IMG/VR virus record: IMGVR_UViG_2541047909_000004
Location: 1 to 34,066 of that record
DNA from: a virus
Lineage: Duplodnaviria > Heunggongvirae > Uroviricota > Caudoviricetes
Direction: 5' to 3' (one strand)
Length of the DNA: 34,066 nucleotides
A model generated the notes under the pieces. It had not been told where the DNA came from, ran no database searches, and saw only the letters and a list, made by a program, of their open reading frames with translations. Of this stretch, positions 1,494 through 29,640 are shown in pieces (position 1 is the stretch's first letter; each line of letters opens with the position of its first letter). The translations under genes were made by a program, and so were the position numbers.

Positions 1494-3844
1494 TTAATAC
1501 TCTCCCCCATTTGCGCATCAGTTAATTCTTTATGCCAGAGACGAAGATTTCTCAAATGGCCGAATAGATGACGAGTTCCCGATGTGGCTTGACCTCCAAT
1601 TCGAATAAAGGTCCGTGTTTTTACGCCCGTCCACTCCGTTTTCATAGTTTTAGTAGCCTCACCGTTAGAAACTACTCGTTTAGTACCATCAGAATAAATA
1701 TTAAAACCACCAATGAATTTTCGAACATCAGTTCGACCAGCAAACACACTAGAAACGTAAGTACTTGTCGACGCTTTATAAGTTTGCATATAAAGCTGAC
1801 CGTAATATTTCTCAGTTGTGTTAAAAGCGTATGTAATTGACTCAATAGGTGGCACACCAGAAAAATCAAAAATACGCGGTGCTACATTAGGAGGAATATC
1901 GCCCCAATTTCTATTAACCTCGACAAGACACGTAAGCGGTCTATTATAGATATTATTTTCAGTTGGGATCGTCACCATATCACTGGAGCGGGTTGCGGGT
2001 GCAGTTGTCGTAATAACAAAAGATGAAGCACATCCGCCGTTTTCAAATTGTGGTGTTGCAAGGTAAATATAATCTCCCGCTTCAGTTATACCACCTTTTT
2101 TCGGCGCATACTGAATCATTGCGCCAATTAAGGTTTCACCTTCAACAGCTTCTATAGTTGCCTCATAGAAAATCCACCCTGTAACCGGATCTTTAGTTGC
2201 AGTAGCTGCTATTCTATTGGCTGCCCCGCCAGTTTTTTCTATTATCAGAGTTCCGAAAGTTAAATAAGCATCTCCTAAAAATGTATAAACCGACCCATCG
2301 TATTTTTCAAAACGCAAACGACAACGAAGACCATCAGGAGCTTTAACCCTGCATGAAACAGTGCAATACTTATTATCGCCACTAACATCAATCCCCCGGG
2401 ATGCACTGCATGTATGCAGACTAAGTGCAGATGATTGTCCTGTCATATTATCTTTTGTTCGCATTTTGGCATATGAAAAACCAAATTCATCAACACCATT
2501 ATTAGTTTTATCGATATTGCTGGTACTCGTCCATTCAGCGGGAGTATTGGATTTAACAAAATAGTTAGTGCGCTGTCCTTCAATCAATAAACCTTCTTTT
2601 TCAAATCGTGGCTCATCAATTTTAGCAACACTAAATACGCCTGATTTATTGATATATGTGGCAGTTGATGCGCGTTTAAACTTAACAACCTTGTCGCCAG
2701 GCATCGTTATTTCATCATCACCAATAACAATTTTTTTATATGACGGCGAAAAGCCCGTAATCATATCCAGTGAATCGTTAAACGGTATCCACACATCAGG
2801 CAGTGGCTGTAAGACATATTTATACGGCTCTGCTGCCTGACTTGCATACTCTCTGGCTGCGTCTTCACTTGCTTTAGCTGCTGTCTGGCTTGCTGCCGAT
2901 GCTTTCGCCGAGTTCGCCGCTGCAGTCTCGCTTGTCTTTGCATTGGTTTCACTGGTTTTTGCTGCTTTTTGACTGTTGGCTGATGCAGTGGCAGAAGCAG
3001 CCGCCGCGCTTGCAGAACCAGCTGCAGCACTCTCGCTTTGGGCTGCTGCATCCTGACTGTTTTTCGCCGCAGTTTCGCTGGCTTTGGCATTCGTTTCGCT
3101 GGTCTTCGCTGCCGTCTGGCTGTTAGCCGCAGCAGTTGCTGATCCAGCTGCTGAAGTCGCAGAACCGGCTGCCGCGCTCTCGCTTTGGGCTGCTGCAACC
3201 TGGCTGTTTTTTGCCGCAGTTTCACTGGCTTTGGCGTTCGTTTCGCTGGTTTTCGCTGCCGTCTGGCTGGACTTTGCGTTGGTTTCGCTCGTCTTTGCGG
3301 CTGTCTCGCTATTTTTCGCGTTGGTTTCTGATTTTTTGGCTGCTGTCGCGGAGTTTGCCGATGCAGTCTTTGAGGTCGCTGCCGCCTGTGCACTATTAGC
3401 TGCATTCGTTTCTGAGGTTTTCGCCGCGTTCTTCGATGATGCCGCTGCAGTTTCGGATTTCTTTGCCGCCGCTGCGCTCTGAGAGGCGGCTTCAGCGTTG
3501 CGTGCCGCTTCTTCCACCATTTCCTCAAAACGACGCAATGCCTCCGGCATGACATCATCTTCCGTCATGGCACCGAGAAAATCATTCAGCGTCCCCGGCT
3601 TAGAATCTTCATACACGGTGATGGTCCCGGCATGTGAAGGCGGAAAACCTTCAACCAGCAGGATAACGCTGTACTGGCCATACTCAACATCCATACTGTA
3701 ACGCCCGGCTTCATCCGGATTTTCTGAGGCCACCGTGTTTACCACAACCGTGGTGCTGTTACGTTTTGCTTTCAGCTGGATTGAGCAGTTCTGTACCGGT
3801 TTTCCTGTGCCGTCTTTCAGTACACCTGAAATCTTTACTGCCAT
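1490..3844 (-). CDS. stf: Side tail fibre protein (lambda Stf-like) with long Ala/Ser/Thr-rich repeat region
   Basis: 784 aa; N-terminus MAVKISGVLKDGTGKPVQNC... matches the lambda-type Stf N-terminal domain; central K-x-S-E-T-x-A heptad-like repeats. Confidence 0.85.
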   Translation of the reverse strand: MAVKISGVLKDGTGKPVQNCSIQLKAKRNSTTVVVNTVASENPDEAGRYSMDVEYGQYSVILLVEGFPPSHAGTITVYEDSKPGTLNDFLGAMTEDDVMPEALRRFEEMVEEAARNAEAASQSAAAAKKSETAAASSKNAAKTSETNAANSAQAAATSKTASANSATAAKKSETNAKNSETAAKTSETNAKSSQTAAKTSETNAKASETAAKNSQVAAAQSESAAAGSATSAAGSATAAANSQTAAKTSETNAKASETAAKNSQDAAAQSESAAAGSASAAAASATASANSQKAAKTSETNAKTSETAAANSAKASAASQTAAKASEDAAREYASQAAEPYKYVLQPLPDVWIPFNDSLDMITGFSPSYKKIVIGDDEITMPGDKVVKFKRASTATYINKSGVFSVAKIDEPRFEKEGLLIEGQRTNYFVKSNTPAEWTSTSNIDKTNNGVDEFGFSYAKMRTKDNMTGQSSALSLHTCSASRGIDVSGDNKYCTVSCRVKAPDGLRCRLRFEKYDGSVYTFLGDAYLTFGTLIIEKTGGAANRIAATATKDPVTGWIFYEATIEAVEGETLIGAMIQYAPKKGGITEAGDYIYLATPQFENGGCASSFVITTTAPATRSSDMVTIPTENNIYNRPLTCLVEVNRNWGDIPPNVAPRIFDFSGVPPIESITYAFNTTEKYYGQLYMQTYKASTSTYVSSVFAGRTDVRKFIGGFNIYSDGTKRVVSNGEATKTMKTEWTGVKTRTFIRIGGQATSGTRHLFGHLRNLRLWHKELTDAQMGESIK
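2880..3480. repeat. Tandem repeats inside stf: ~21-bp periodic units plus a ~150-bp near-perfect duplication
   Basis: DNA block around 3025-3120 is repeated at about 3175-3270; produces spurious ORFs in several frames on both strands. Confidence 0.8.
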
Positions 3845-24420: not shown

Positions 24421-24810
24421 TCAGGCGGCTGCACCCGCCGTTTTCTCGTACTTACTGATAGTGATCTCGACCTTCCCTTCCGGGATAACCGGTCCCCACT
24501 CCACCAGCATTCTTTTCACCTGGCTGTCGTCTTCCCACACACCCGCGTGGGTCAGGGCGTCAAACAGCGCCTTGTTATAGTTGTCCAGATCGCGGATCCG
24601 GTTATCCGGAGGAAACAACACGATCTCCACTGAAGCAGGTGCCGACGTTGGTTTCGGCAGACGACGTAACTGCTCAACTATTGCTGTGCACGCCGCACTC
24701 TGGAATTTTCGCCCCGCCGCGCTTATCAGGCTCTTACCAGCAAATGCCACTTTGTTGGGGTGTCGCCAGTAGGTGTTCACGCTGGGTGGAAAAGGCAGAA
24801 TCAGCTTCAT
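24421..24810 (-). CDS. rusA: Holliday junction resolvase RusA
   Basis: MKLILPFPPSVNTYWRH...NRIRDLDNYNKALFDALTHAGVWEDDSQV... RusA family motifs. Confidence 0.85.
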   Translation of the reverse strand: MKLILPFPPSVNTYWRHPNKVAFAGKSLISAAGRKFQSAACTAIVEQLRRLPKPTSAPASVEIVLFPPDNRIRDLDNYNKALFDALTHAGVWEDDSQVKRMLVEWGPVIPEGKVEITISKYEKTAGAAA

Positions 24811-25133
24811 ACTTTCAGCCCCCTCTCATGTAACCAGTGGGCTGCACGCAGCCTGGCGTTTTCCTCACCAGCAAGCAGTGCGCGGATAATCCCGGCCACC
24901 TCGCTGTCGTCGTCCTTCACCGCGGTATGAAGCGTGATGCCCCGGGCCACGCCACGCTTTATCGTGATGACGCCTTTTTTCTCCAGTGCGCGAAGATGCT
25001 CCACCGCTGCATTCACTGAACGGTATCCCAGCATGGTAGCCACCTCCTGATTGGTTGGCGGGAAGCCACGTTCTTTCTGGTAAGAAATCAGCATATCCAG
25101 CACCTGCTGCTGGCATTGAGTTAACGTCGTCAT
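24807..25133 (-). CDS. LexA-N-terminal-like winged-helix DNA-binding protein
   Basis: LTQCQQQVLDMLISYQKERGFPPTNQEVATMLGYRSVNAAVEHLRALEKKGVI parallels the LexA DNA-binding domain; ATG overlaps upstream stop (TAATG). Confidence 0.65.
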   Translation of the reverse strand: MTTLTQCQQQVLDMLISYQKERGFPPTNQEVATMLGYRSVNAAVEHLRALEKKGVITIKRGVARGITLHTAVKDDDSEVAGIIRALLAGEENARLRAAHWLHERGLKV

Positions 25134-25627
25134 TAAGCCCCCACGTAATTCCCTGACAGATACCACTCTTCACCCGATACAGCGCGCTTGCTGCTTTTCC
25201 GTAAACACCGCTCACGACGCGCAAGAAAATTGTTTCGCTCTTGCTGGGAGTGGCTTTCACGGAATGCCGCCATCCACACCGTTGCAGCACGACGGTATAA
25301 GCCCCTGGACTCCAGTTCTTCCGCCTGGCGGGTCAGGCACAAAATCACCCGGGGATCGTTAGTGCCGACATAGAAATTGCGCACAGGTCTGGATTCACGA
25401 ACTGGTTGCGGTTCCGGCTCCTGCGGTATCTCAGTCAGCCGCGGGAAATGTCTGCGTGTATCCCCTTCACAACGGTGAGCCACACGCCCACTCTGACGTA
25501 ACTTGCTTGCTGACTGCAGAACGCGCTGTCGTGAGTAACCTGCAAAAGCATCCGCAATGTCTCCGGAAGTACACCCCGGATGGGCTTCAATGAATTTCTG
25601 AACGTCATTCAAAAGACTCATGATCAC
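25133..25627 (-). CDS. PerC-like regulator (164 aa; CPS-53 YfdN-like)
   Basis: C-terminal ...LESRGLYRRAATVWMAAF... PerC-type motif; assignment by recall. Confidence 0.55.
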   Translation of the reverse strand: MIMSLLNDVQKFIEAHPGCTSGDIADAFAGYSRQRVLQSASKLRQSGRVAHRCEGDTRRHFPRLTEIPQEPEPQPVRESRPVRNFYVGTNDPRVILCLTRQAEELESRGLYRRAATVWMAAFRESHSQQERNNFLARRERCLRKSSKRAVSGEEWYLSGNYVGA

Positions 25628-26109: not shown

Positions 26110-26275
26110 AGTTTTTTTATCTGACGGATCATGTTTTGATTTTACTGACGGATCCCCACCAGATTCTGACGGGTGAAAACCCGCTTTTTTGCCAGATTTC
26201 GACGCATCAAATTTTGACGGGTCAGATTTTGATGCGTCAGATTTTGACGGGTCAGAATCTGACAGTTGAGAAAAT
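26110..26275. repeat. Iteron-like array: several direct repeats of TGACGGGTCAGA / TGATGCGTCAGATTT-type units next to an AT-rich stretch (candidate replication origin)
   Basis: About 18-bp periodic units CAGATTTTGACGGGT / CAGATTTTGATGCG between 26200 and 26265 plus CTGACGGATC repeated at 26121 and 26145. Confidence 0.6.
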
Positions 26276-26555
26276 GCCGCTGCCTGAAGCTTCGCAACGT
26301 TAAGCTGATAAACATTCGACGCATTGCGGTTAATCCATCATTTGGATTGGGGTAAATATCAGGACGCAGTTCATGAGGGGTCACGGACCAGTTTCCCAAC
26401 TCACAAAGTTGTAAAACCCGTTCTGACGGGACTTGATTGTTAATTACCCAATTAGCGACGGATTGAGTGGACTTAAAACCAAAGTGACGGGCTACTTCAG
26501 ATAAAGATTTTCCCGCAGCTTTTACTGCTTTCTCTGTGTAGTTTTGAGATGACAT
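26142..26555 (-). CDS. Cro/YdaS-like HTH protein whose ORF extends through the iteron array
   Basis: N-terminal ...LSEVARHFGFKSTQSVANWVINNQVPSERVLQLCELGNWSVTPHELRPDIYP... Cro/YdaS-type HTH; C-terminal tail (LTRQNLTHQNLTRQNL) is encoded by the repeats; SD GAGGAGAAAGG. Confidence 0.65.
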   Translation of the reverse strand: MSSQNYTEKAVKAAGKSLSEVARHFGFKSTQSVANWVINNQVPSERVLQLCELGNWSVTPHELRPDIYPNPNDGLTAMRRMFISLTLRSFRQRHFLNCQILTRQNLTHQNLTRQNLMRRNLAKKRVFTRQNLVGIRQ

Positions 26556-26640
26556 ACCTTTCTCCTCTGAAATTCAGAGGGATGATGCTACTTAAAATAG
26601 CAGAATGCAACTACTTAAAATAGAAATGACTAGCGTATGT
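26556..26640. promoter_or_regulatory. Immunity-region operator/promoter segment between divergent cro-like and cI-like genes
   Basis: Perfect-arm palindrome CCTCTGAA-A-TTCAGAGG at 26564-26580 and two direct copies of CTACTTAAAATAG at 26588-26600 and 26611-26623. Confidence 0.5.
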
Positions 26641-27366
26641 GATGCGAGTAACCTTCTACCTATGGTAGAAGAACAGAAGTATCCAGATTTCGCCAAGAGA
26701 CTAAACGAGCTAATGACAAACAAGGGAATTTCTGTCACCCAACTCAAAAGTCTTGTGGGCGTTACATATGAAATGGCGCGGCGATACACAATCGGCGCTG
26801 CGAAGCCTCGTGCCTCTGTCATGAATAAACTTGCATTGGCTCTGGGGGTATCAGCTTCATATTTAGAATATGGTGTTGGCGAGAGAGAAGGATGTAAGGA
26901 AATGGCAAGCATCCCCAATCCAACAAAACCCGATGTATACAGGATAGAAGTTTTGGATCTTAGCGTTAGCGCAGGACCTGGAACCTATATGCTTTCAGAC
27001 TATGTTGATGTGCTCTACGCCATTGAGTTCACAACAGAGCATGCCCGTTCTCTTTTCGGTAATCGTTCTCAAGATGATATTAAAGTTATGACTGTAAATG
27101 GCGACAGCATGTCCCCTACTCTAGTTTCCGGAGATCGACTGTTTGTCGACATTTCTGTTCGCAACTTCCAAACTGATGGTGTTTACTCTTTCGTTTATGG
27201 TAAGACGTTCCACGTTAAACGTCTACAAATGCAAGGCAACAAACTCGCCGTTCTTTCGGATAATCCAGCCTATGAGAAATGGTACATTGATGAGAAGTCC
27301 CAAGATCAACTTTATGTTATGGGCAAAGCATTGATACACGAATCAATTAAATACAACCGGCTTTAG
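26605..27366 (+). CDS. cI: CI-like prophage repressor (HTH plus S24 LexA-like peptidase domain)
   Basis: C-terminal ...VNGDSMSPTLVSGDRLFVD...FHVKRLQ... Ser/Lys autocleavage module; N-terminal HTH; start uncertain (26605, 26629 or 26662), possibly leaderless. Confidence 0.8.
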   Translation: MQLLKIEMTSVCDASNLLPMVEEQKYPDFAKRLNELMTNKGISVTQLKSLVGVTYEMARRYTIGAAKPRASVMNKLALALGVSASYLEYGVGEREGCKEMASIPNPTKPDVYRIEVLDLSVSAGPGTYMLSDYVDVLYAIEFTTEHARSLFGNRSQDDIKVMTVNGDSMSPTLVSGDRLFVDISVRNFQTDGVYSFVYGKTFHVKRLQMQGNKLAVLSDNPAYEKWYIDEKSQDQLYVMGKALIHESIKYNRL

Positions 27367-27536
27367 TTCTTCGTTTAGACTATAGAACTAAAGGTGAAAA
27401 AATAATATTTATCAAGCAAGTGCTATTACTAATAGTTGTTTTACTCTCTTATTTTTATTAAACATTATCATTAACAATATAAAATAATCACCCAGCGTAA
27501 ATTACAATATGCTGGGGGTCGAAAGGATAGAGAAAT

Positions 27537-28613
27537 ATGACAAAATCAATTTGTTTTTTTAATCATAAAGGTGGGGTAAGTAAAACCACAACAACCTTCA
27601 ATCTTGGATGGGCACTTGCGGATGAAGGCAAGAAAGTATTGATGGTTGACCTTGATTCGCAATGTAATCTAACAGGAATGGTTCTTGGCTATGAAAAGAT
27701 TGATGAGGGTTTAGATTCTTTTTATTCTAGCAGAGATAACTTAACTCTTGGACCTATTGTAGAATATTTGATTAATGGCGGACAACCTGAAGCATACCTT
27801 GAAAAAGAAACGGGAAAATTACACCCTACACTGCATGAAAACCTTCTGCTTCTTCCCGGACATTTAGATGTTTCGGACTTAGATTCACAGATAAGTGTTT
27901 CTCTAAAAATTGCTGCTGGTATTCCTGCTACAAGAAATATACCAGGGAACCTGCCAAAAATATTACAGCTAATCGCCATGAAGAATAATATTGATTACAT
28001 TCTTTATGATCTCAGCCCTAATGTTGGAGGTTTAAATGAAGTAGTTCTCATGTCAAGTGACTATTTTATCGTACCTGTAGCTCCAGACTTTTTTTGCTGG
28101 CAAGCAATTCGCTCTCTCTCAAAAAATATACCTCGCTGGCACAAAGAATTAGCATTATTTAAAGAAAATAATGATGGTAACTCTTCACAATCAATTAAAA
28201 ATGCACCGCAGTTTCTAGGTATGATTCAGCAGAGATACAGGCCGCGTAAAGGAGCACCTGTAAAATCTTTCGAAAAATGGATGGCAGCTATCCGTGATGC
28301 TGTTGATTCGATCTTAGTGCCAAATCTAGAAAAAATTACCTGCATAATTCCACGAGATAAAGTGCAACATGCAATTAACAAAACAACAGTCAGTGGAGAT
28401 TTATCAGCCTATGATCTTGCGCATATTTCCGATTTCAACTCATTAATCGCAATAAGCCAACAACTAGCGACACCTGTTTTCTCCATCAGTGATCAGCAAA
28501 TTCGCGATTCAGGGCAATTTGGGCATGCCTTAAATACAATGAAATCAAGCAGAGACGCCTTTAACGAACAATTTAAAGGGCTGGCTCAACGAGTTCTAGA
28601 ACTTACAAAGTAA
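27537..28613 (+). CDS. ParA/MinD-family ATPase (358 aa, deviant Walker A), low-GC moron in the rexAB-equivalent position
   Basis: FFNHKGGVSKTTTTFNLGWALADEGKKVLMVDLDSQCNLT Walker A; SD AAGGATAG; AT-rich gene and flanks; immediately downstream of cI on the same strand. Confidence 0.8.
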   Translation: MTKSICFFNHKGGVSKTTTTFNLGWALADEGKKVLMVDLDSQCNLTGMVLGYEKIDEGLDSFYSSRDNLTLGPIVEYLINGGQPEAYLEKETGKLHPTLHENLLLLPGHLDVSDLDSQISVSLKIAAGIPATRNIPGNLPKILQLIAMKNNIDYILYDLSPNVGGLNEVVLMSSDYFIVPVAPDFFCWQAIRSLSKNIPRWHKELALFKENNDGNSSQSIKNAPQFLGMIQQRYRPRKGAPVKSFEKWMAAIRDAVDSILVPNLEKITCIIPRDKVQHAINKTTVSGDLSAYDLAHISDFNSLIAISQQLATPVFSISDQQIRDSGQFGHALNTMKSSRDAFNEQFKGLAQRVLELTK

Positions 28614-28620
28614 TGCATGT

Positions 28621-28648
28621 GCCCGGCCGCATAACCGGGCTTTACTCT
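28621..28648 (+). terminator. Rho-independent terminator after ParA-like gene
   Basis: GCCCGG-CCGCATAA-CCGGGC followed by TTTACTCTTCTTTC. Confidence 0.6.
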
Positions 28649-28800
28649 TCTTTCTCCCTGATTAATCTCATAAAAAACTCCCTCCTCATAATTCACTATG
28701 CTCAATACCTACTCCAACTTCGTGCGATATTTTCAGTTTACAGCATAGTAAATCAGCAAAAACATTTAACTTTCAATTAATTATAGAAAAATCATAGACA

Positions 28801-28848
28801 ACAACAAATATCTACTTTTTGTTGTTGATTTTTGCTACTTTAAGTAGC
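28801..28848. promoter_or_regulatory. Candidate left operator/promoter region (inverted repeats sharing the CTACTT half-site)
   Basis: ACAACAAA...TTTGTTGT inverted repeat at 28801-28825 and GCTACTT-TA-AGTAGC at 28834-28848, followed by CATAAT. Confidence 0.4.
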
Positions 28849-29003
28849 AACATAATGTAAGCTATCACGGACAGGCAGGACGCCCACGAAGTAGCCGCCG
28901 GTGGCGTATGAATGACCGGATGATTCGTTAGCAACAAAAAAGCGCCCTACAGGACGCTTAGCTCTTTAACAATCTTAGTATCCCCGTAACAAAAGAGGGT
29001 TCT

Positions 29004-29297
29004 ATGGTCATATTCTGTGCTTACGTTCATCCTAATGGATTTTTTATCAGCACCAACCAACAAGACGAATTCTGGATTCTACTTAGTAAGCAGGTCGGAT
29101 GGGGACGATTCTGTCTAATCCGACCAGAATCAGAATTTACAGAGAATGGAGGGCTTTTTGAATTACGTGAAATACGTCCGGCAGATGGTCAAGCCCCTGA
29201 CCAAGTAATCGAATCGTCAGCTGTTTTATGGCGTCGGCAGGAAGCGTTCGAAGCTGAGAGAGTAATTTCTTCTTATCTTCAGTCGTGGCAGAAGTAG
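29004..29297 (+). CDS. Hypothetical protein (97 aa), first ORF downstream of candidate pL
   Basis: ATG preceded by AAGAGGG; overlaps the convergent 167-aa ORF by 161 bp, so only one may be fully real. Confidence 0.4.
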   Translation: MVIFCAYVHPNGFFISTNQQDEFWILLSKQVGWGRFCLIRPESEFTENGGLFELREIRPADGQAPDQVIESSAVLWRRQEAFEAERVISSYLQSWQK

Positions 29298-29640
29298 AAC
29301 TATTGATGATACGTTCAAGTTCACAGAGAGTCTCATCATGCAATCTTATTGTCATAATCCCAAGAATAGCTTTAAGACCTCCATCATCACGAATGAAATC
29401 AATTCCATCTTTAGTAATTCTTAATTCAGGAATATTTATATTTATGCCATCCAAGTAATAATCAAGAGCATTCTTAATCAAGCCATGTTCTTCGAGATAA
29501 ATTAAGTTCGAAATTAGGACATTATCATCTCCAAATGCGTCACGAACAGACTGCAACGCATCATCAGAAATTTCATAAGGATGAGCATCATACAGTATTT
29601 GTAACAACTGCCTTTGTGCACTTCTATCAAATTTGTCCAT
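29137..29640 (-). CDS. Hypothetical protein (167 aa), AT-rich, opposite strand to the early operon
   Basis: Long ORF with protein-like composition (MDKFDRSAQRQLLQILYDAHPYEISDD...); weak SD; no recognisable motif. Confidence 0.5.
   Translation of the reverse strand: MDKFDRSAQRQLLQILYDAHPYEISDDALQSVRDAFGDDNVLISNLIYLEEHGLIKNALDYYLDGININIPELRITKDGIDFIRDDGGLKAILGIMTIRLHDETLCELERIINSSTSATTEDKKKLLSQLRTLPADAIKQLTIRLLGQGLDHLPDVFHVIQKALHSL

Follow-up and report, generated by a model that had tools for sequence, protein, structure and literature searches.

Putative CI operators shared by the right and left control regions of a lambdoid Escherichia coli prophage

The DNA considered here is a stretch of 34,066 nucleotides (IMG/VR virus record IMGVR_UViG_2541047909_000004), called the window below, always at its full length. 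Its part from 25 to 31 kb matches lambdoid (CPS-53/yfd-type) prophages in Escherichia coli chromosomes at 100% identity, and the window carries the immunity region of such a prophage. The subject of this text is a group of CTACTT motifs in the right (oR) and left (oL) control regions of this immunity region, together with the CI-like repressor that would recognize them. Two genes diverge from oR. The cI-like gene (26662–27366, + strand) encodes a repressor of 234 residues with an N-terminal helix-turn-helix (HTH) domain (Pfam HTH_3, 2e-05) and a self-cleaving C-terminal domain of the S24 (LexA/CI) type (Peptidase_S24, 1.6e-16). The protein also matches PHROG 4 (6e-50) and PHROG 6201, and alignment with HK022 CI identifies the S24 motifs as Ala-Gly (SAGPG), the serine of GDSM and the lysine of VKRLQ. 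The cro-like gene (26142–26555, − strand) encodes a YdaS-type HTH protein (Pfam YdaS_toxin, 4.8e-11; PHROG 35, transcriptional repressor), and its start at 26555 is separated by 106 bp from the divergent cI ATG. The RefSeq annotation of identical E. coli DNA starts cI at the ATG at 26662 (MVEEQK, 234 residues), which is conserved in all relatives. ATG 26605, the start of the longest open reading frame (ORF), was rejected as the cI start, since the relatives do not conserve this ATG.

All features of an initial annotation of this DNA were recovered by direct reading and search, at or within 2 bp of where it had placed them. It had noted two direct copies of CTACTTAAAATAG overlapping the cI start. 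Both copies are present, at 26588–26600 and 26611–26623, and with at most two mismatches this sequence has four matches against 0.54 expected, a number equalled in 0 of 100 shuffles. The overlap holds only for the ATG of the longest ORF; the conserved cI ATG at 26662 lies 38–74 bp downstream of the copies. Nor are the copies simple repeats alone, each also being an imperfect 13/15-bp dyad. They belong to a 15-bp dyad, GCTACTTwAAGTAGC, with the core CTAC-N5-GTAG, of which there are two sites at oR and two at oL. OR1 (GCTACTTAAAATAGC, 26587–26601) has six of seven symmetric pairs, owing to a G-to-A change relative to the perfect dyad GCTACTTAAAGTAGC found in most relatives. OR2 (ACTACTTAAAATAGA, 26610–26624) lies 23 bp from OR1, covers the first base of the predicted −35 hexamer of the right early promoter (pR) and ends 1 bp upstream of the predicted −35 hexamer of the cI maintenance promoter (pRM); 14 of its 15 columns are invariant in the loci retrieved by protein search. 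At oL, OL2 (TCTACTTTTTGTTGT, 28811–28825; TCTACTTTTTGTAGT in most relatives) lies 23 bp from OL1 (GCTACTTTAAGTAGC, 28834–28848), a perfect dyad whose arms reach 9 bp at 28832–28850. OL1 is the inverted pair described in the initial annotation, with a single T at its centre (GCTACTT-T-AAGTAGC) instead of the TA given there.

The two control regions mirror each other. A repeat finder aligned 26582–26627 with 28808–28853 as a 46-nt inverted repeat of 78% identity, which pairs the degenerate OL2 with the second oR site, and the centre-to-centre distance is 23 bp in both regions. A fifth site, the OR3 candidate TCTACCTATGGTAGA (26655–26669, 14 of 15 columns invariant), has the same CTAC-N5-GTAG core and lies within a perfect 19-bp palindrome, CTTCTACC-TAT-GGTAGAAG (26653–26671), whose centre is the A of the cI ATG at 26662. 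This site, the likely leaderless transcript from pRM and the deletion truncating cro, both described below, were not part of the initial annotation. When the whole 34-kb window was scanned for CTAC-N5-GTAG with at most one mismatch, exactly five matches were found: OR1, OR2, OR3, OL2 and OL1. Against 5.96 expected, five is an ordinary count; their clustering in two control regions is not expected by chance. No third oL site was detected in the window at this threshold. Perfect palindromes are enriched throughout the window (24 versus about 6 in shuffles), so that a palindrome by itself is weak evidence.

A protein search retrieved many repressors from E. coli, Citrobacter, Klebsiella and Gibbsiella, with N-terminal domains 50–73% identical to that of the window repressor and with the recognition helix GVTYEM(A/V)RRYT(I/L)G(A/T)AKPR retained. 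The DNA of six of these relatives, of three divergent E. coli variants and of phage Phi06_2987 was compared with the window. All compared loci were found to contain OR1, OR2, the site on the cI ATG and, downstream, an oL with the layout O2-TTGATT-O1, and OR1 and OL2 of most relatives are better dyads than the window copies. The conservation of each block was expressed as mean pairwise identity over ten distinct oR regions retrieved by protein, a set in which the repressors have N-terminal domains 51–73% identical to that of the window. OR1, OR2 and OR3, the last being the site on the cI ATG, gave 0.90, 0.97 and 0.99, and two further blocks, ATGACT and GTAAYCT, gave 0.95 each. The corresponding values were 0.64 for the linker between OR1 and OR2, 0.59 for the pRM spacer, taken as the 16 nt that separate these two blocks, and 0.71 for the first cI codons after OR3. 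From the cI start to oL the distance ranges from 1.4 to 2.7 kb across the relatives of family 1, with unrelated cargo in between (ParA-like, HigB-like toxin, unknowns). When viral contigs were scanned for exact matches to the OR2 block, 75 loci were added, bringing the total to 51 distinct oR regions and many oL regions; these 75 contigs encode the same recognition helix and keep the sites, while the spacers, the flanking cargo and the distance from cI to oL vary. The initial annotation had read the CTACTT sites as a recognition sequence common to the right and left control regions, and had named absence of the motif from prophages with the same repressor as an observation that would count against this. 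The reading is borne out by the conservation of the sites together with one recognition helix: all 11 loci retrieved by protein have the motif in their right as well as their left control region, and it was also found in every viral contig with sufficient flanking DNA.

The association with the DNA-binding domain becomes clearer where the rest of the repressor differs. Family 2 has a repressor of 149 residues with the same recognition helix and without the S24 domain. It is encoded at locus L016 (5950–6399, − strand; helix QVTYEMARRYTLGTAKPR), at L053 and L015, and at about 40 other IMG/VR loci, and its C-terminal part is short and unrelated. The same OR1, OR2, OR3 and oL motifs accompany it. 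By sequence this protein looks like a natural domain swap, and the lack of an S24 domain implies a different route of induction; no phage isolate in the phage collection was found to carry it. At another locus, L078, a repressor of 147 residues keeps the CI helix next to a different Cro (LKTSWAVAKW). Family 2 and L078 both retain OR1, OR2 and, despite the differing cI coding sequence, OR3 on the start codon, and their oL contains two or three sites of the CTAC type. These results indicate that it is the DNA-binding domain with which the motif set travels, irrespective of Cro, of adjoining genes and of the remainder of the repressor. Escherichia phage Phi06_2987 S (L090, KM389288.1, positions 2520–2610 and 3376–3411; an unannotated record) encodes a related repressor with the helix GVSYEMARRYTLGTAKPR and has the same operator family at oR, at the cI ATG and at oL, together with the pL leader element described below. 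The motif set tracks the helix GVTYEMxRRYTxGxAKPR, even when this is joined to another C-terminal domain, and in Phi06_2987. The reverse combination, the same C-terminal domain with another N-terminal domain (HK639, LMessi, L002 and L003), goes with other dyads. A scan of genome contigs with the CI protein gave only two loci, both with other N-terminal domains and other dyads, which serve as negative controls. The closest CI in the phage collection is below 60% identity, the collection contains no isolated phage with the same repressor, and a PDB sequence search with CI gave no match at E ≤0.001.

The positions of the sites suggest what the repressor would do there. Predicted pR (26582–26610, − strand) consists of a −35 hexamer TTGCAT (26605–26610), a 17-bp spacer and a −10 hexamer CATCAT (26582–26587), which reads CATTAT in most relatives, with a predicted start near 26575; OR1 fills the spacer and touches the −10 hexamer. 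The predicted left early promoter (pL; 28825–28853, + strand) is its mirror image, with TTGATT (28825–28830), a 17-bp spacer containing OL1 and CAACAT (28848–28853), and it is kept in relatives, there with CAATAT as the −10 hexamer. Predicted pRM (26626–26654, + strand) has ATGACT (26626–26631) as its −35 hexamer, a variable spacer of 17 bp and TAACCT (26649–26654; TAATCT in relatives) as its −10 hexamer, which ends 7 nt before the cI ATG. No Shine–Dalgarno (SD) sequence was found before ATG 26662 in any lineage. A −10 hexamer only 7 nt from the ATG implies a leaderless cI mRNA, and pRM likely produces such a transcript. The pairing of the repressor with these sites, all promoters and start sites, activation of pRM and leaderless translation are predictions drawn from sequence.

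Taken with the conservation described above, this layout makes it very probable that the CTACTT motifs are operators to which the CI-like repressor binds to silence the E. coli prophage, in an arrangement like that of lambda and HK022. A CI dimer would recognize the 15-bp dyad GCTACTTwAAGTAGC. At both divergent early promoters O1 would fill the spacer between −35 and −10 and touch the −10 hexamer, and O2 would overlap the TTG of the −35 hexamer. Given this placement over promoter elements, cooperative binding of CI at OR1–OR2 and at OL1–OL2 would shut off pR, with cro and the replication genes, and pL. CI at OR2, 1 bp upstream of the weak pRM, would probably activate the leaderless cI transcript, as at lambda pRM, and OR3, at about −7 to +8 of pRM, would allow Cro, or CI itself when in excess, to shut off cI. 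Induction of the prophage would result from self-cleavage of the S24 domain, stimulated by RecA. As for OR3, its inner bases are CC/GG versus TT/AA in O1 and O2, a symmetric change that is fixed in all lineages (TCTACC-TAT-GGTAGA). The cI valine codon is always GTA, again in all lineages, which preserves the GTAG half-site of OR3. Two one-sided variants of the site were found, both giving A·C mismatches on the cI-sense strand, and one of them brings back ATAG, the half-site found in OR1/OR2. These mismatches do not support a hairpin in cI-sense RNA, which had been considered for this palindrome, and make a protein site more likely than an RNA stem.

Several points weigh against this interpretation. 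The 75 viral contigs were picked by the exact OR2 pattern and are therefore uninformative on OR2 itself, and since all the relatives have common ancestry, the conservation of a site counts only in comparison with the spacers beside it. The hexamers proposed for pR, pL and pRM are suitably spaced and conserved; against the sigma-70 consensus they score 7–8 of 12 (pR, 8 of 12), below the threshold of the promoter scan, which calls a single promoter in oR, TTAAAA-18-TAAAAT, read in the cI direction and located inside OR1/OR2. OR3 differs from O1 and O2 at its inner positions and lies 45 bp from OR2, which makes binding of CI there less certain. A full-text literature search for three operator 13-mers returned only chance matches in unrelated papers. 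In this particular prophage, moreover, the switch as a whole is probably non-functional, with a truncated cro and with the CII-like and O genes lost. A different occupant of the sites has also been considered: their main ligand might be not CI but the Cro-like protein or another factor, for example if they were centromere-like sites for the ParA-like ATPase. Lambdoid Cro proteins normally use the same operators as the repressor, and binding of Cro to some or all of the sites is thus to be expected; the window also has a ParA-like gene between oR and oL. However, the sites persist in relatives without the ParA-like gene, for which reason a centromere role was rejected, the sites and the CI helix are kept at L078 where Cro is different, and the sites change whenever the N-terminal domain of CI changes. 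That the main ligand of the sites is something other than CI is accordingly very improbable.

A second alternative concerns the promoter of cI. Under it the maintenance promoter would be TTAAAA-18-TAAAAT itself (26592–26621), CI bound there would only repress its own gene, and the mRNA would have a leader and might be translated from ATG 26626 into a protein of 246 residues. This site is the only sigma-70-like one reported by the scan in oR, at 9 of 12. The 12-codon frame from the conserved ATGAC at 26626 to the cI ATG (26626–26661) is open in all lineages, and the 246-residue form is often predicted, many gene callers extending the repressor from ATG 26626. Against this, both hexamers are the A/T-rich centres of operators, which already explains their conservation, and neither ATG 26626 nor ATG 26662 is preceded by an SD sequence. 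The 10 residues between the two ATGs vary freely and are unconstrained, whereas ATGAC and GTAAYCT form fixed blocks with a spacing of exactly 17 bp, and an open frame of 11 codons would arise by chance in about 60% of lineages by our own estimate. The geometry from −10 to ATG in HK022 also agrees with the leaderless model. The conserved ATGAC is therefore read here as a −35 element, with an N-terminal extension of the repressor as the alternative, and a leadered cI mRNA from TTAAAA-18-TAAAAT is considered unlikely.

The initial annotation had also listed, among the candidate operators, a perfect-arm palindrome overlapping the cro SD sequence. This 17-bp palindrome is present (CCTCTGAA-A-TTCAGAGG, perfect 8+1+8, 26564–26580, − strand), and its 3′ arm in the cro sense, together with AG, forms the cro SD (AGGAG, 6 nt before ATG 26555). 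As an operator of the same kind it does not hold up, its sequence being unrelated to the CTAC dyad and missing in sister lineages. It is absent from family 2 and Phi06_2987, despite recognition helices of CI and Cro essentially the same as those of the window, and also from L078. Its absence where the CI helix is conserved, and in two of these three lineages the Cro helix as well, argues that it is not an operator for these proteins, and this role was rejected. Sequence comparison instead marks it as a separate, lineage-restricted element. Among 15 distinct family-1 sequences the conserved part is a 6-bp stem, CCUCUR/YAGAGG, around a variable 5-nt centre. Read in the cro sense, 89 of the 90 cells of the six stem positions hold a standard pair. 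At one position G:C (5 sequences) gives way to A:U (9), plus one G·U, and this is the only double change and a compensatory one; the three one-sided changes in family 1 all give G·U or U·G on the cro-sense strand and A·C on the other. At the same place family 2 carries a different inverted repeat, CTTACC-N11-GGTAAG, with a similar G·U change. That four of four stem changes favour one strand (about 1 in 16, by our own estimate) suggests pairing in RNA, although the SD is also made better by one of these changes. With the 5′ arm included, the complete stem has a folding energy of about −12 kcal/mol. Since pR is predicted to start at about 26575, where the 5′ arm ends, its own mRNA would be unable to form this stem.

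What the palindrome does can be explained in more than one way. It might be bound as DNA by some protein, either as a third type of operator or as the target of a host factor, over the start point of pR. Its position matches that of the HK022 operator at 3057–3071, between the pR −10 hexamer and the cro SD, its conserved 6-bp arms and free 5-bp centre follow the pattern of a site for a dimeric HTH protein, and with the predicted start inside the 5′ arm the stem could not form on the pR transcript. This explanation is possible, if doubtful, given that the palindrome is lost where the CI and Cro helices are kept, that its presence is independent of the type of CII-like gene, that the window contains no second copy and that the stem changes follow RNA pairing. 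A site for a CII-like protein (YmfL/Phage_CP76) at a pRE-like promoter was rejected as well, L014 having the palindrome and L090 lacking it with the same CII N-terminal type. With low confidence, the palindrome may instead act in RNA, its stem covering the cro SD on transcripts begun upstream of pR and on no others. In IS10, an inverted repeat spans the transposase gene's own transcription start, and only transcripts from further upstream contain both arms and sequester the ribosome-binding site; Davis, Simons and Kleckner are said to have described this fold-back inhibition of transposase translation for IS10/Tn10 in 1985. The cro palindrome is possibly analogous, given its RNA-like covariation and the predicted pR start inside its 5′ arm; it is missing in sister lineages. 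Both switch genes have a palindrome straddling their own predicted start, that of the cro SD at pR and that of the cI ATG at pRM, and the cro stem might act as an IS10-like fold-back safeguard, Cro being made only from true pR transcripts. This extension is rather improbable; if it were true, the stem would guard against accidental flipping of the lysogenic switch. To our knowledge, no fold-back safeguard of this sort has been reported for lambdoid phages. A small ORF on the + strand behind the AGAGG of the palindrome (MLLKVANSNYLK) was also tried and rejected: its ATG is lost in many family-2 sequences and its frame consists of the operators themselves.

How does the CI-operator arrangement compare with known systems? 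In lambda, cI and cro are divergent, paired operators 23–24 bp apart lie over both early promoters, the cI mRNA is leaderless and the repressor is cleaved through its S24 domain, and lambda CI activates pRM from the operator directly upstream of its −35 hexamer. The window resembles lambda in the divergent cI and cro genes, the paired putative operators at both predicted early promoters, a further such site upstream of the −35 hexamer of a weak predicted cI promoter, the S24 domain and, probably, a leaderless cI. It differs in that its operators are 15 bp long, versus 17 bp in lambda, and unrelated in sequence, and in that its third right site is at +1 of pRM, 45 bp from OR2, whereas that of lambda lies over the pRM hexamers. 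The Cro of the window is a YdaS-family HTH protein and, by sequence, no relative of the lambda Cro fold. Overall, the sequence features of lambdoid immunity, namely an HTH and S24 repressor, a divergent cro-like gene and shared dyads at oR and oL, are all found in the window.

The closest architecture is that of HK022. Its operators were reported by Carlson and Little (1993), according to the citation in PMC8053113, and cooperative binding of HK022 CI and looping between OL and OR are also described there (PMC8053113); its annotation was taken from GenBank X16093. HK022 CI is 42% identical to the window CI overall, with a higher value in the C-terminal S24 part and a poor alignment of the N-terminal domains. 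The HK022 operators, too, are dyads of 15 bp, in which outer half-sites of 5 bp flank an A/T-rich centre (TGTACTTAAAGTTCA in HK022, GCTACTTAAAGTAGC for the window). In both, one operator lies in the pR spacer, the annotated HK022 pR being TTGACT, a 16-bp spacer and CATAAT and the type predicted for the window being TTGnnn and a CATTAT-like hexamer with a 17-bp spacer, and in both a pair of sites about 23–24 bp apart lies at pL. The HK022 operator TGAACCATAAGTTCA (3000–3014) is centred on the A of the cI ATG, as is OR3 at A26662, and a TATAGT hexamer ends 7 nt upstream of the HK022 cI ATG, the same geometry as that of the predicted −10 hexamer of pRM in the window. An HK022-type architecture, with 15-bp dyads of which one is centred on the cI initiation codon, is present in the window. 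The specificity is another matter. The recognition helices differ (VTPKAISKWFNG in HK022 against VTYEMARRYTIG), as do the half-sites (TGAAC/TGTAC in HK022 versus GCTAC), and with neither helix nor half-site shared the window does not belong to the HK022 immunity group. Between the pR −10 hexamer and the cro SD, HK022 has an ordinary operator, whereas the window has the unrelated CCTCT palindrome there and an extra OR2 upstream of the −35 hexamer. The distance from oL to oR is about 0.7 kb in HK022 (PMC8053113) and 2.2 kb in the window, where it is larger because of inserted cargo. Within the phage collection the repressors of HK639 and LMessi are closest, at 59% identity, and share the C-terminal domain family and the divergent layout with the window; they have annotated pR and pL, another N-terminal domain and operators of the form ATAAC-N4-GTTAT.

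Among 5426 complete E. coli genomes, 205 carry this immunity type, and relatives of it occur in Citrobacter, Klebsiella and Gibbsiella and in the E. coli phage record Phi06_2987. By its sequence it is a new and widespread immunity type of a well-known kind of switch, not a new mechanism, and the accepted picture of such switches is unchanged by these findings. The 15-bp recognition sequence and five mapped sites provide a directly testable set of operators, the operator sequence allows prophages to be sorted into immunity groups, and another natural pair of CI and operator becomes available for synthetic circuits. One DNA-binding domain with its operators, joined to two C-terminal domains (S24 and the short form of 149 residues), is in addition a useful case of domain swapping in repressors.

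Two other structures of the initial annotation are genuine as features of the window and were not upheld as operators. The second dyad beside the inverted pair at oL, placed there at 28801–28825, was found to be a 10+9+10 structure at 28799–28827 (CAACAACAAA-N9-TTTGTTGTTG), the right arm of which is the mutated half of OL2. The pairing of TTTGTTGTTG with CAACAACAAA arises because the window OL2 reads GTTG, versus GTAG in most relatives; the dyad is absent in the relatives, which have GTAGTTG and unrelated sequence upstream, and it is therefore not conserved. The hairpin over the cI stop codon (27361–27393, + strand) has a 10-bp stem and a 13-nt loop, folds at −13.6 kcal/mol (z −3.5) and lies at the junction of the ParA-like insert. 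Its 3′ arm occurs only in lineages with this insert, and lineages with other cargo diverge right after the stop codon. It lacks the features of an intrinsic terminator, the stem being A/T-rich and followed by GTGAAAAAATAA with no T-run, and it was not reported by the terminator scan.

Downstream of pL, a conserved structured leader of 65 nt (28867–28931, + strand) begins about 8 nt after the predicted start. It contains two helices with compensatory changes: pair 34/51 is GC in six sequences, UA in two and CG in two, and pair 36/49 is UA in six, GC in three and AU in one. A covariance model built on it found one copy per locus, always after pL, and no copy after pR or in HK022, HK639 or family 2. 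On these grounds a put-like or nut-like repeat was rejected; nor does the window leader match, under the covariance model, the putL-like antiterminator RNA that HK639 contains. Rfam searches of the whole window at gathering thresholds, and of 28780–29020 with E up to 10, gave nothing meaningful. The conservation of the leader supports pL as a real promoter. About 30 nt past it lies GCTCTTTAACAA (28961–28972), which from its agreement with the rrn consensus we take to be an exact rrn-type boxA and which is the sole copy both in the window and in L001. It is directly preceded by a G+C-rich hairpin (28940–28959), whose minus strand is the terminator of a convergent gene for a 167-residue protein (29137–29640). 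No N-like protein was recognized downstream of pL. The leader may serve the pL operon as an RNA for antitermination or other regulation, and together with boxA it may form an antitermination region there.

The remaining features concern the state and the cargo of this prophage. Only 26332–26555 of the cro ORF (codons 1–74) is native cro sequence, and the remainder is an out-of-frame fusion into an O-like replication gene; the intact Cro of L001 and relatives has 87 residues. Comparison by BLAST with L001 showed that 1196 bp present in prophages identical elsewhere (such as NZ_AP022222) have been deleted here, the junction lying at 26331/26332. The deletion removed the last 13 cro codons, the CII-like ymfL, a DUF4222 gene and the 5′ end of the O-like gene, and it is the reason why the 137-residue "cro" ORF reaches into the iteron-coding part of the O gene. 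The deletion probably leaves the prophage locked in and unable to replicate. Within the remaining O-like gene, 26193–26256 contains 4.3 tandem copies of a 15-nt unit (CAGATTTTGACGGGT), which are probably origin iterons, as in the lambda O gene.

Between cI and oL the window carries the gene of the ParA-like ATPase as cargo (a moron; 27537–28613, + strand; Pfam AAA_31 and CbiA; PHROG 164), followed by a terminator-like hairpin from the terminator scan (28621–28640, + strand) that would end the cI–ParA transcript. In relatives this gene is swapped for unrelated genes. The segment from the cI stop to oL (27394–28800, with equivalents at L006–L014) holds different cargo in almost every relative: the ParA-like ATPase in the window and L014, a HigB-like toxin in L009 and various unknowns in others. 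It behaves as a hot spot for moron insertion, comparable to the rex position in lambda. Finally, the early right operon contains two regulator genes on the − strand, at 24807–25166 and 25133–25627, encoding a LexA-family regulator (so annotated in relatives) and a PerC-family regulator (yfdN-like); the size of the protein annotated as LexA-family fits a DNA-binding domain alone.

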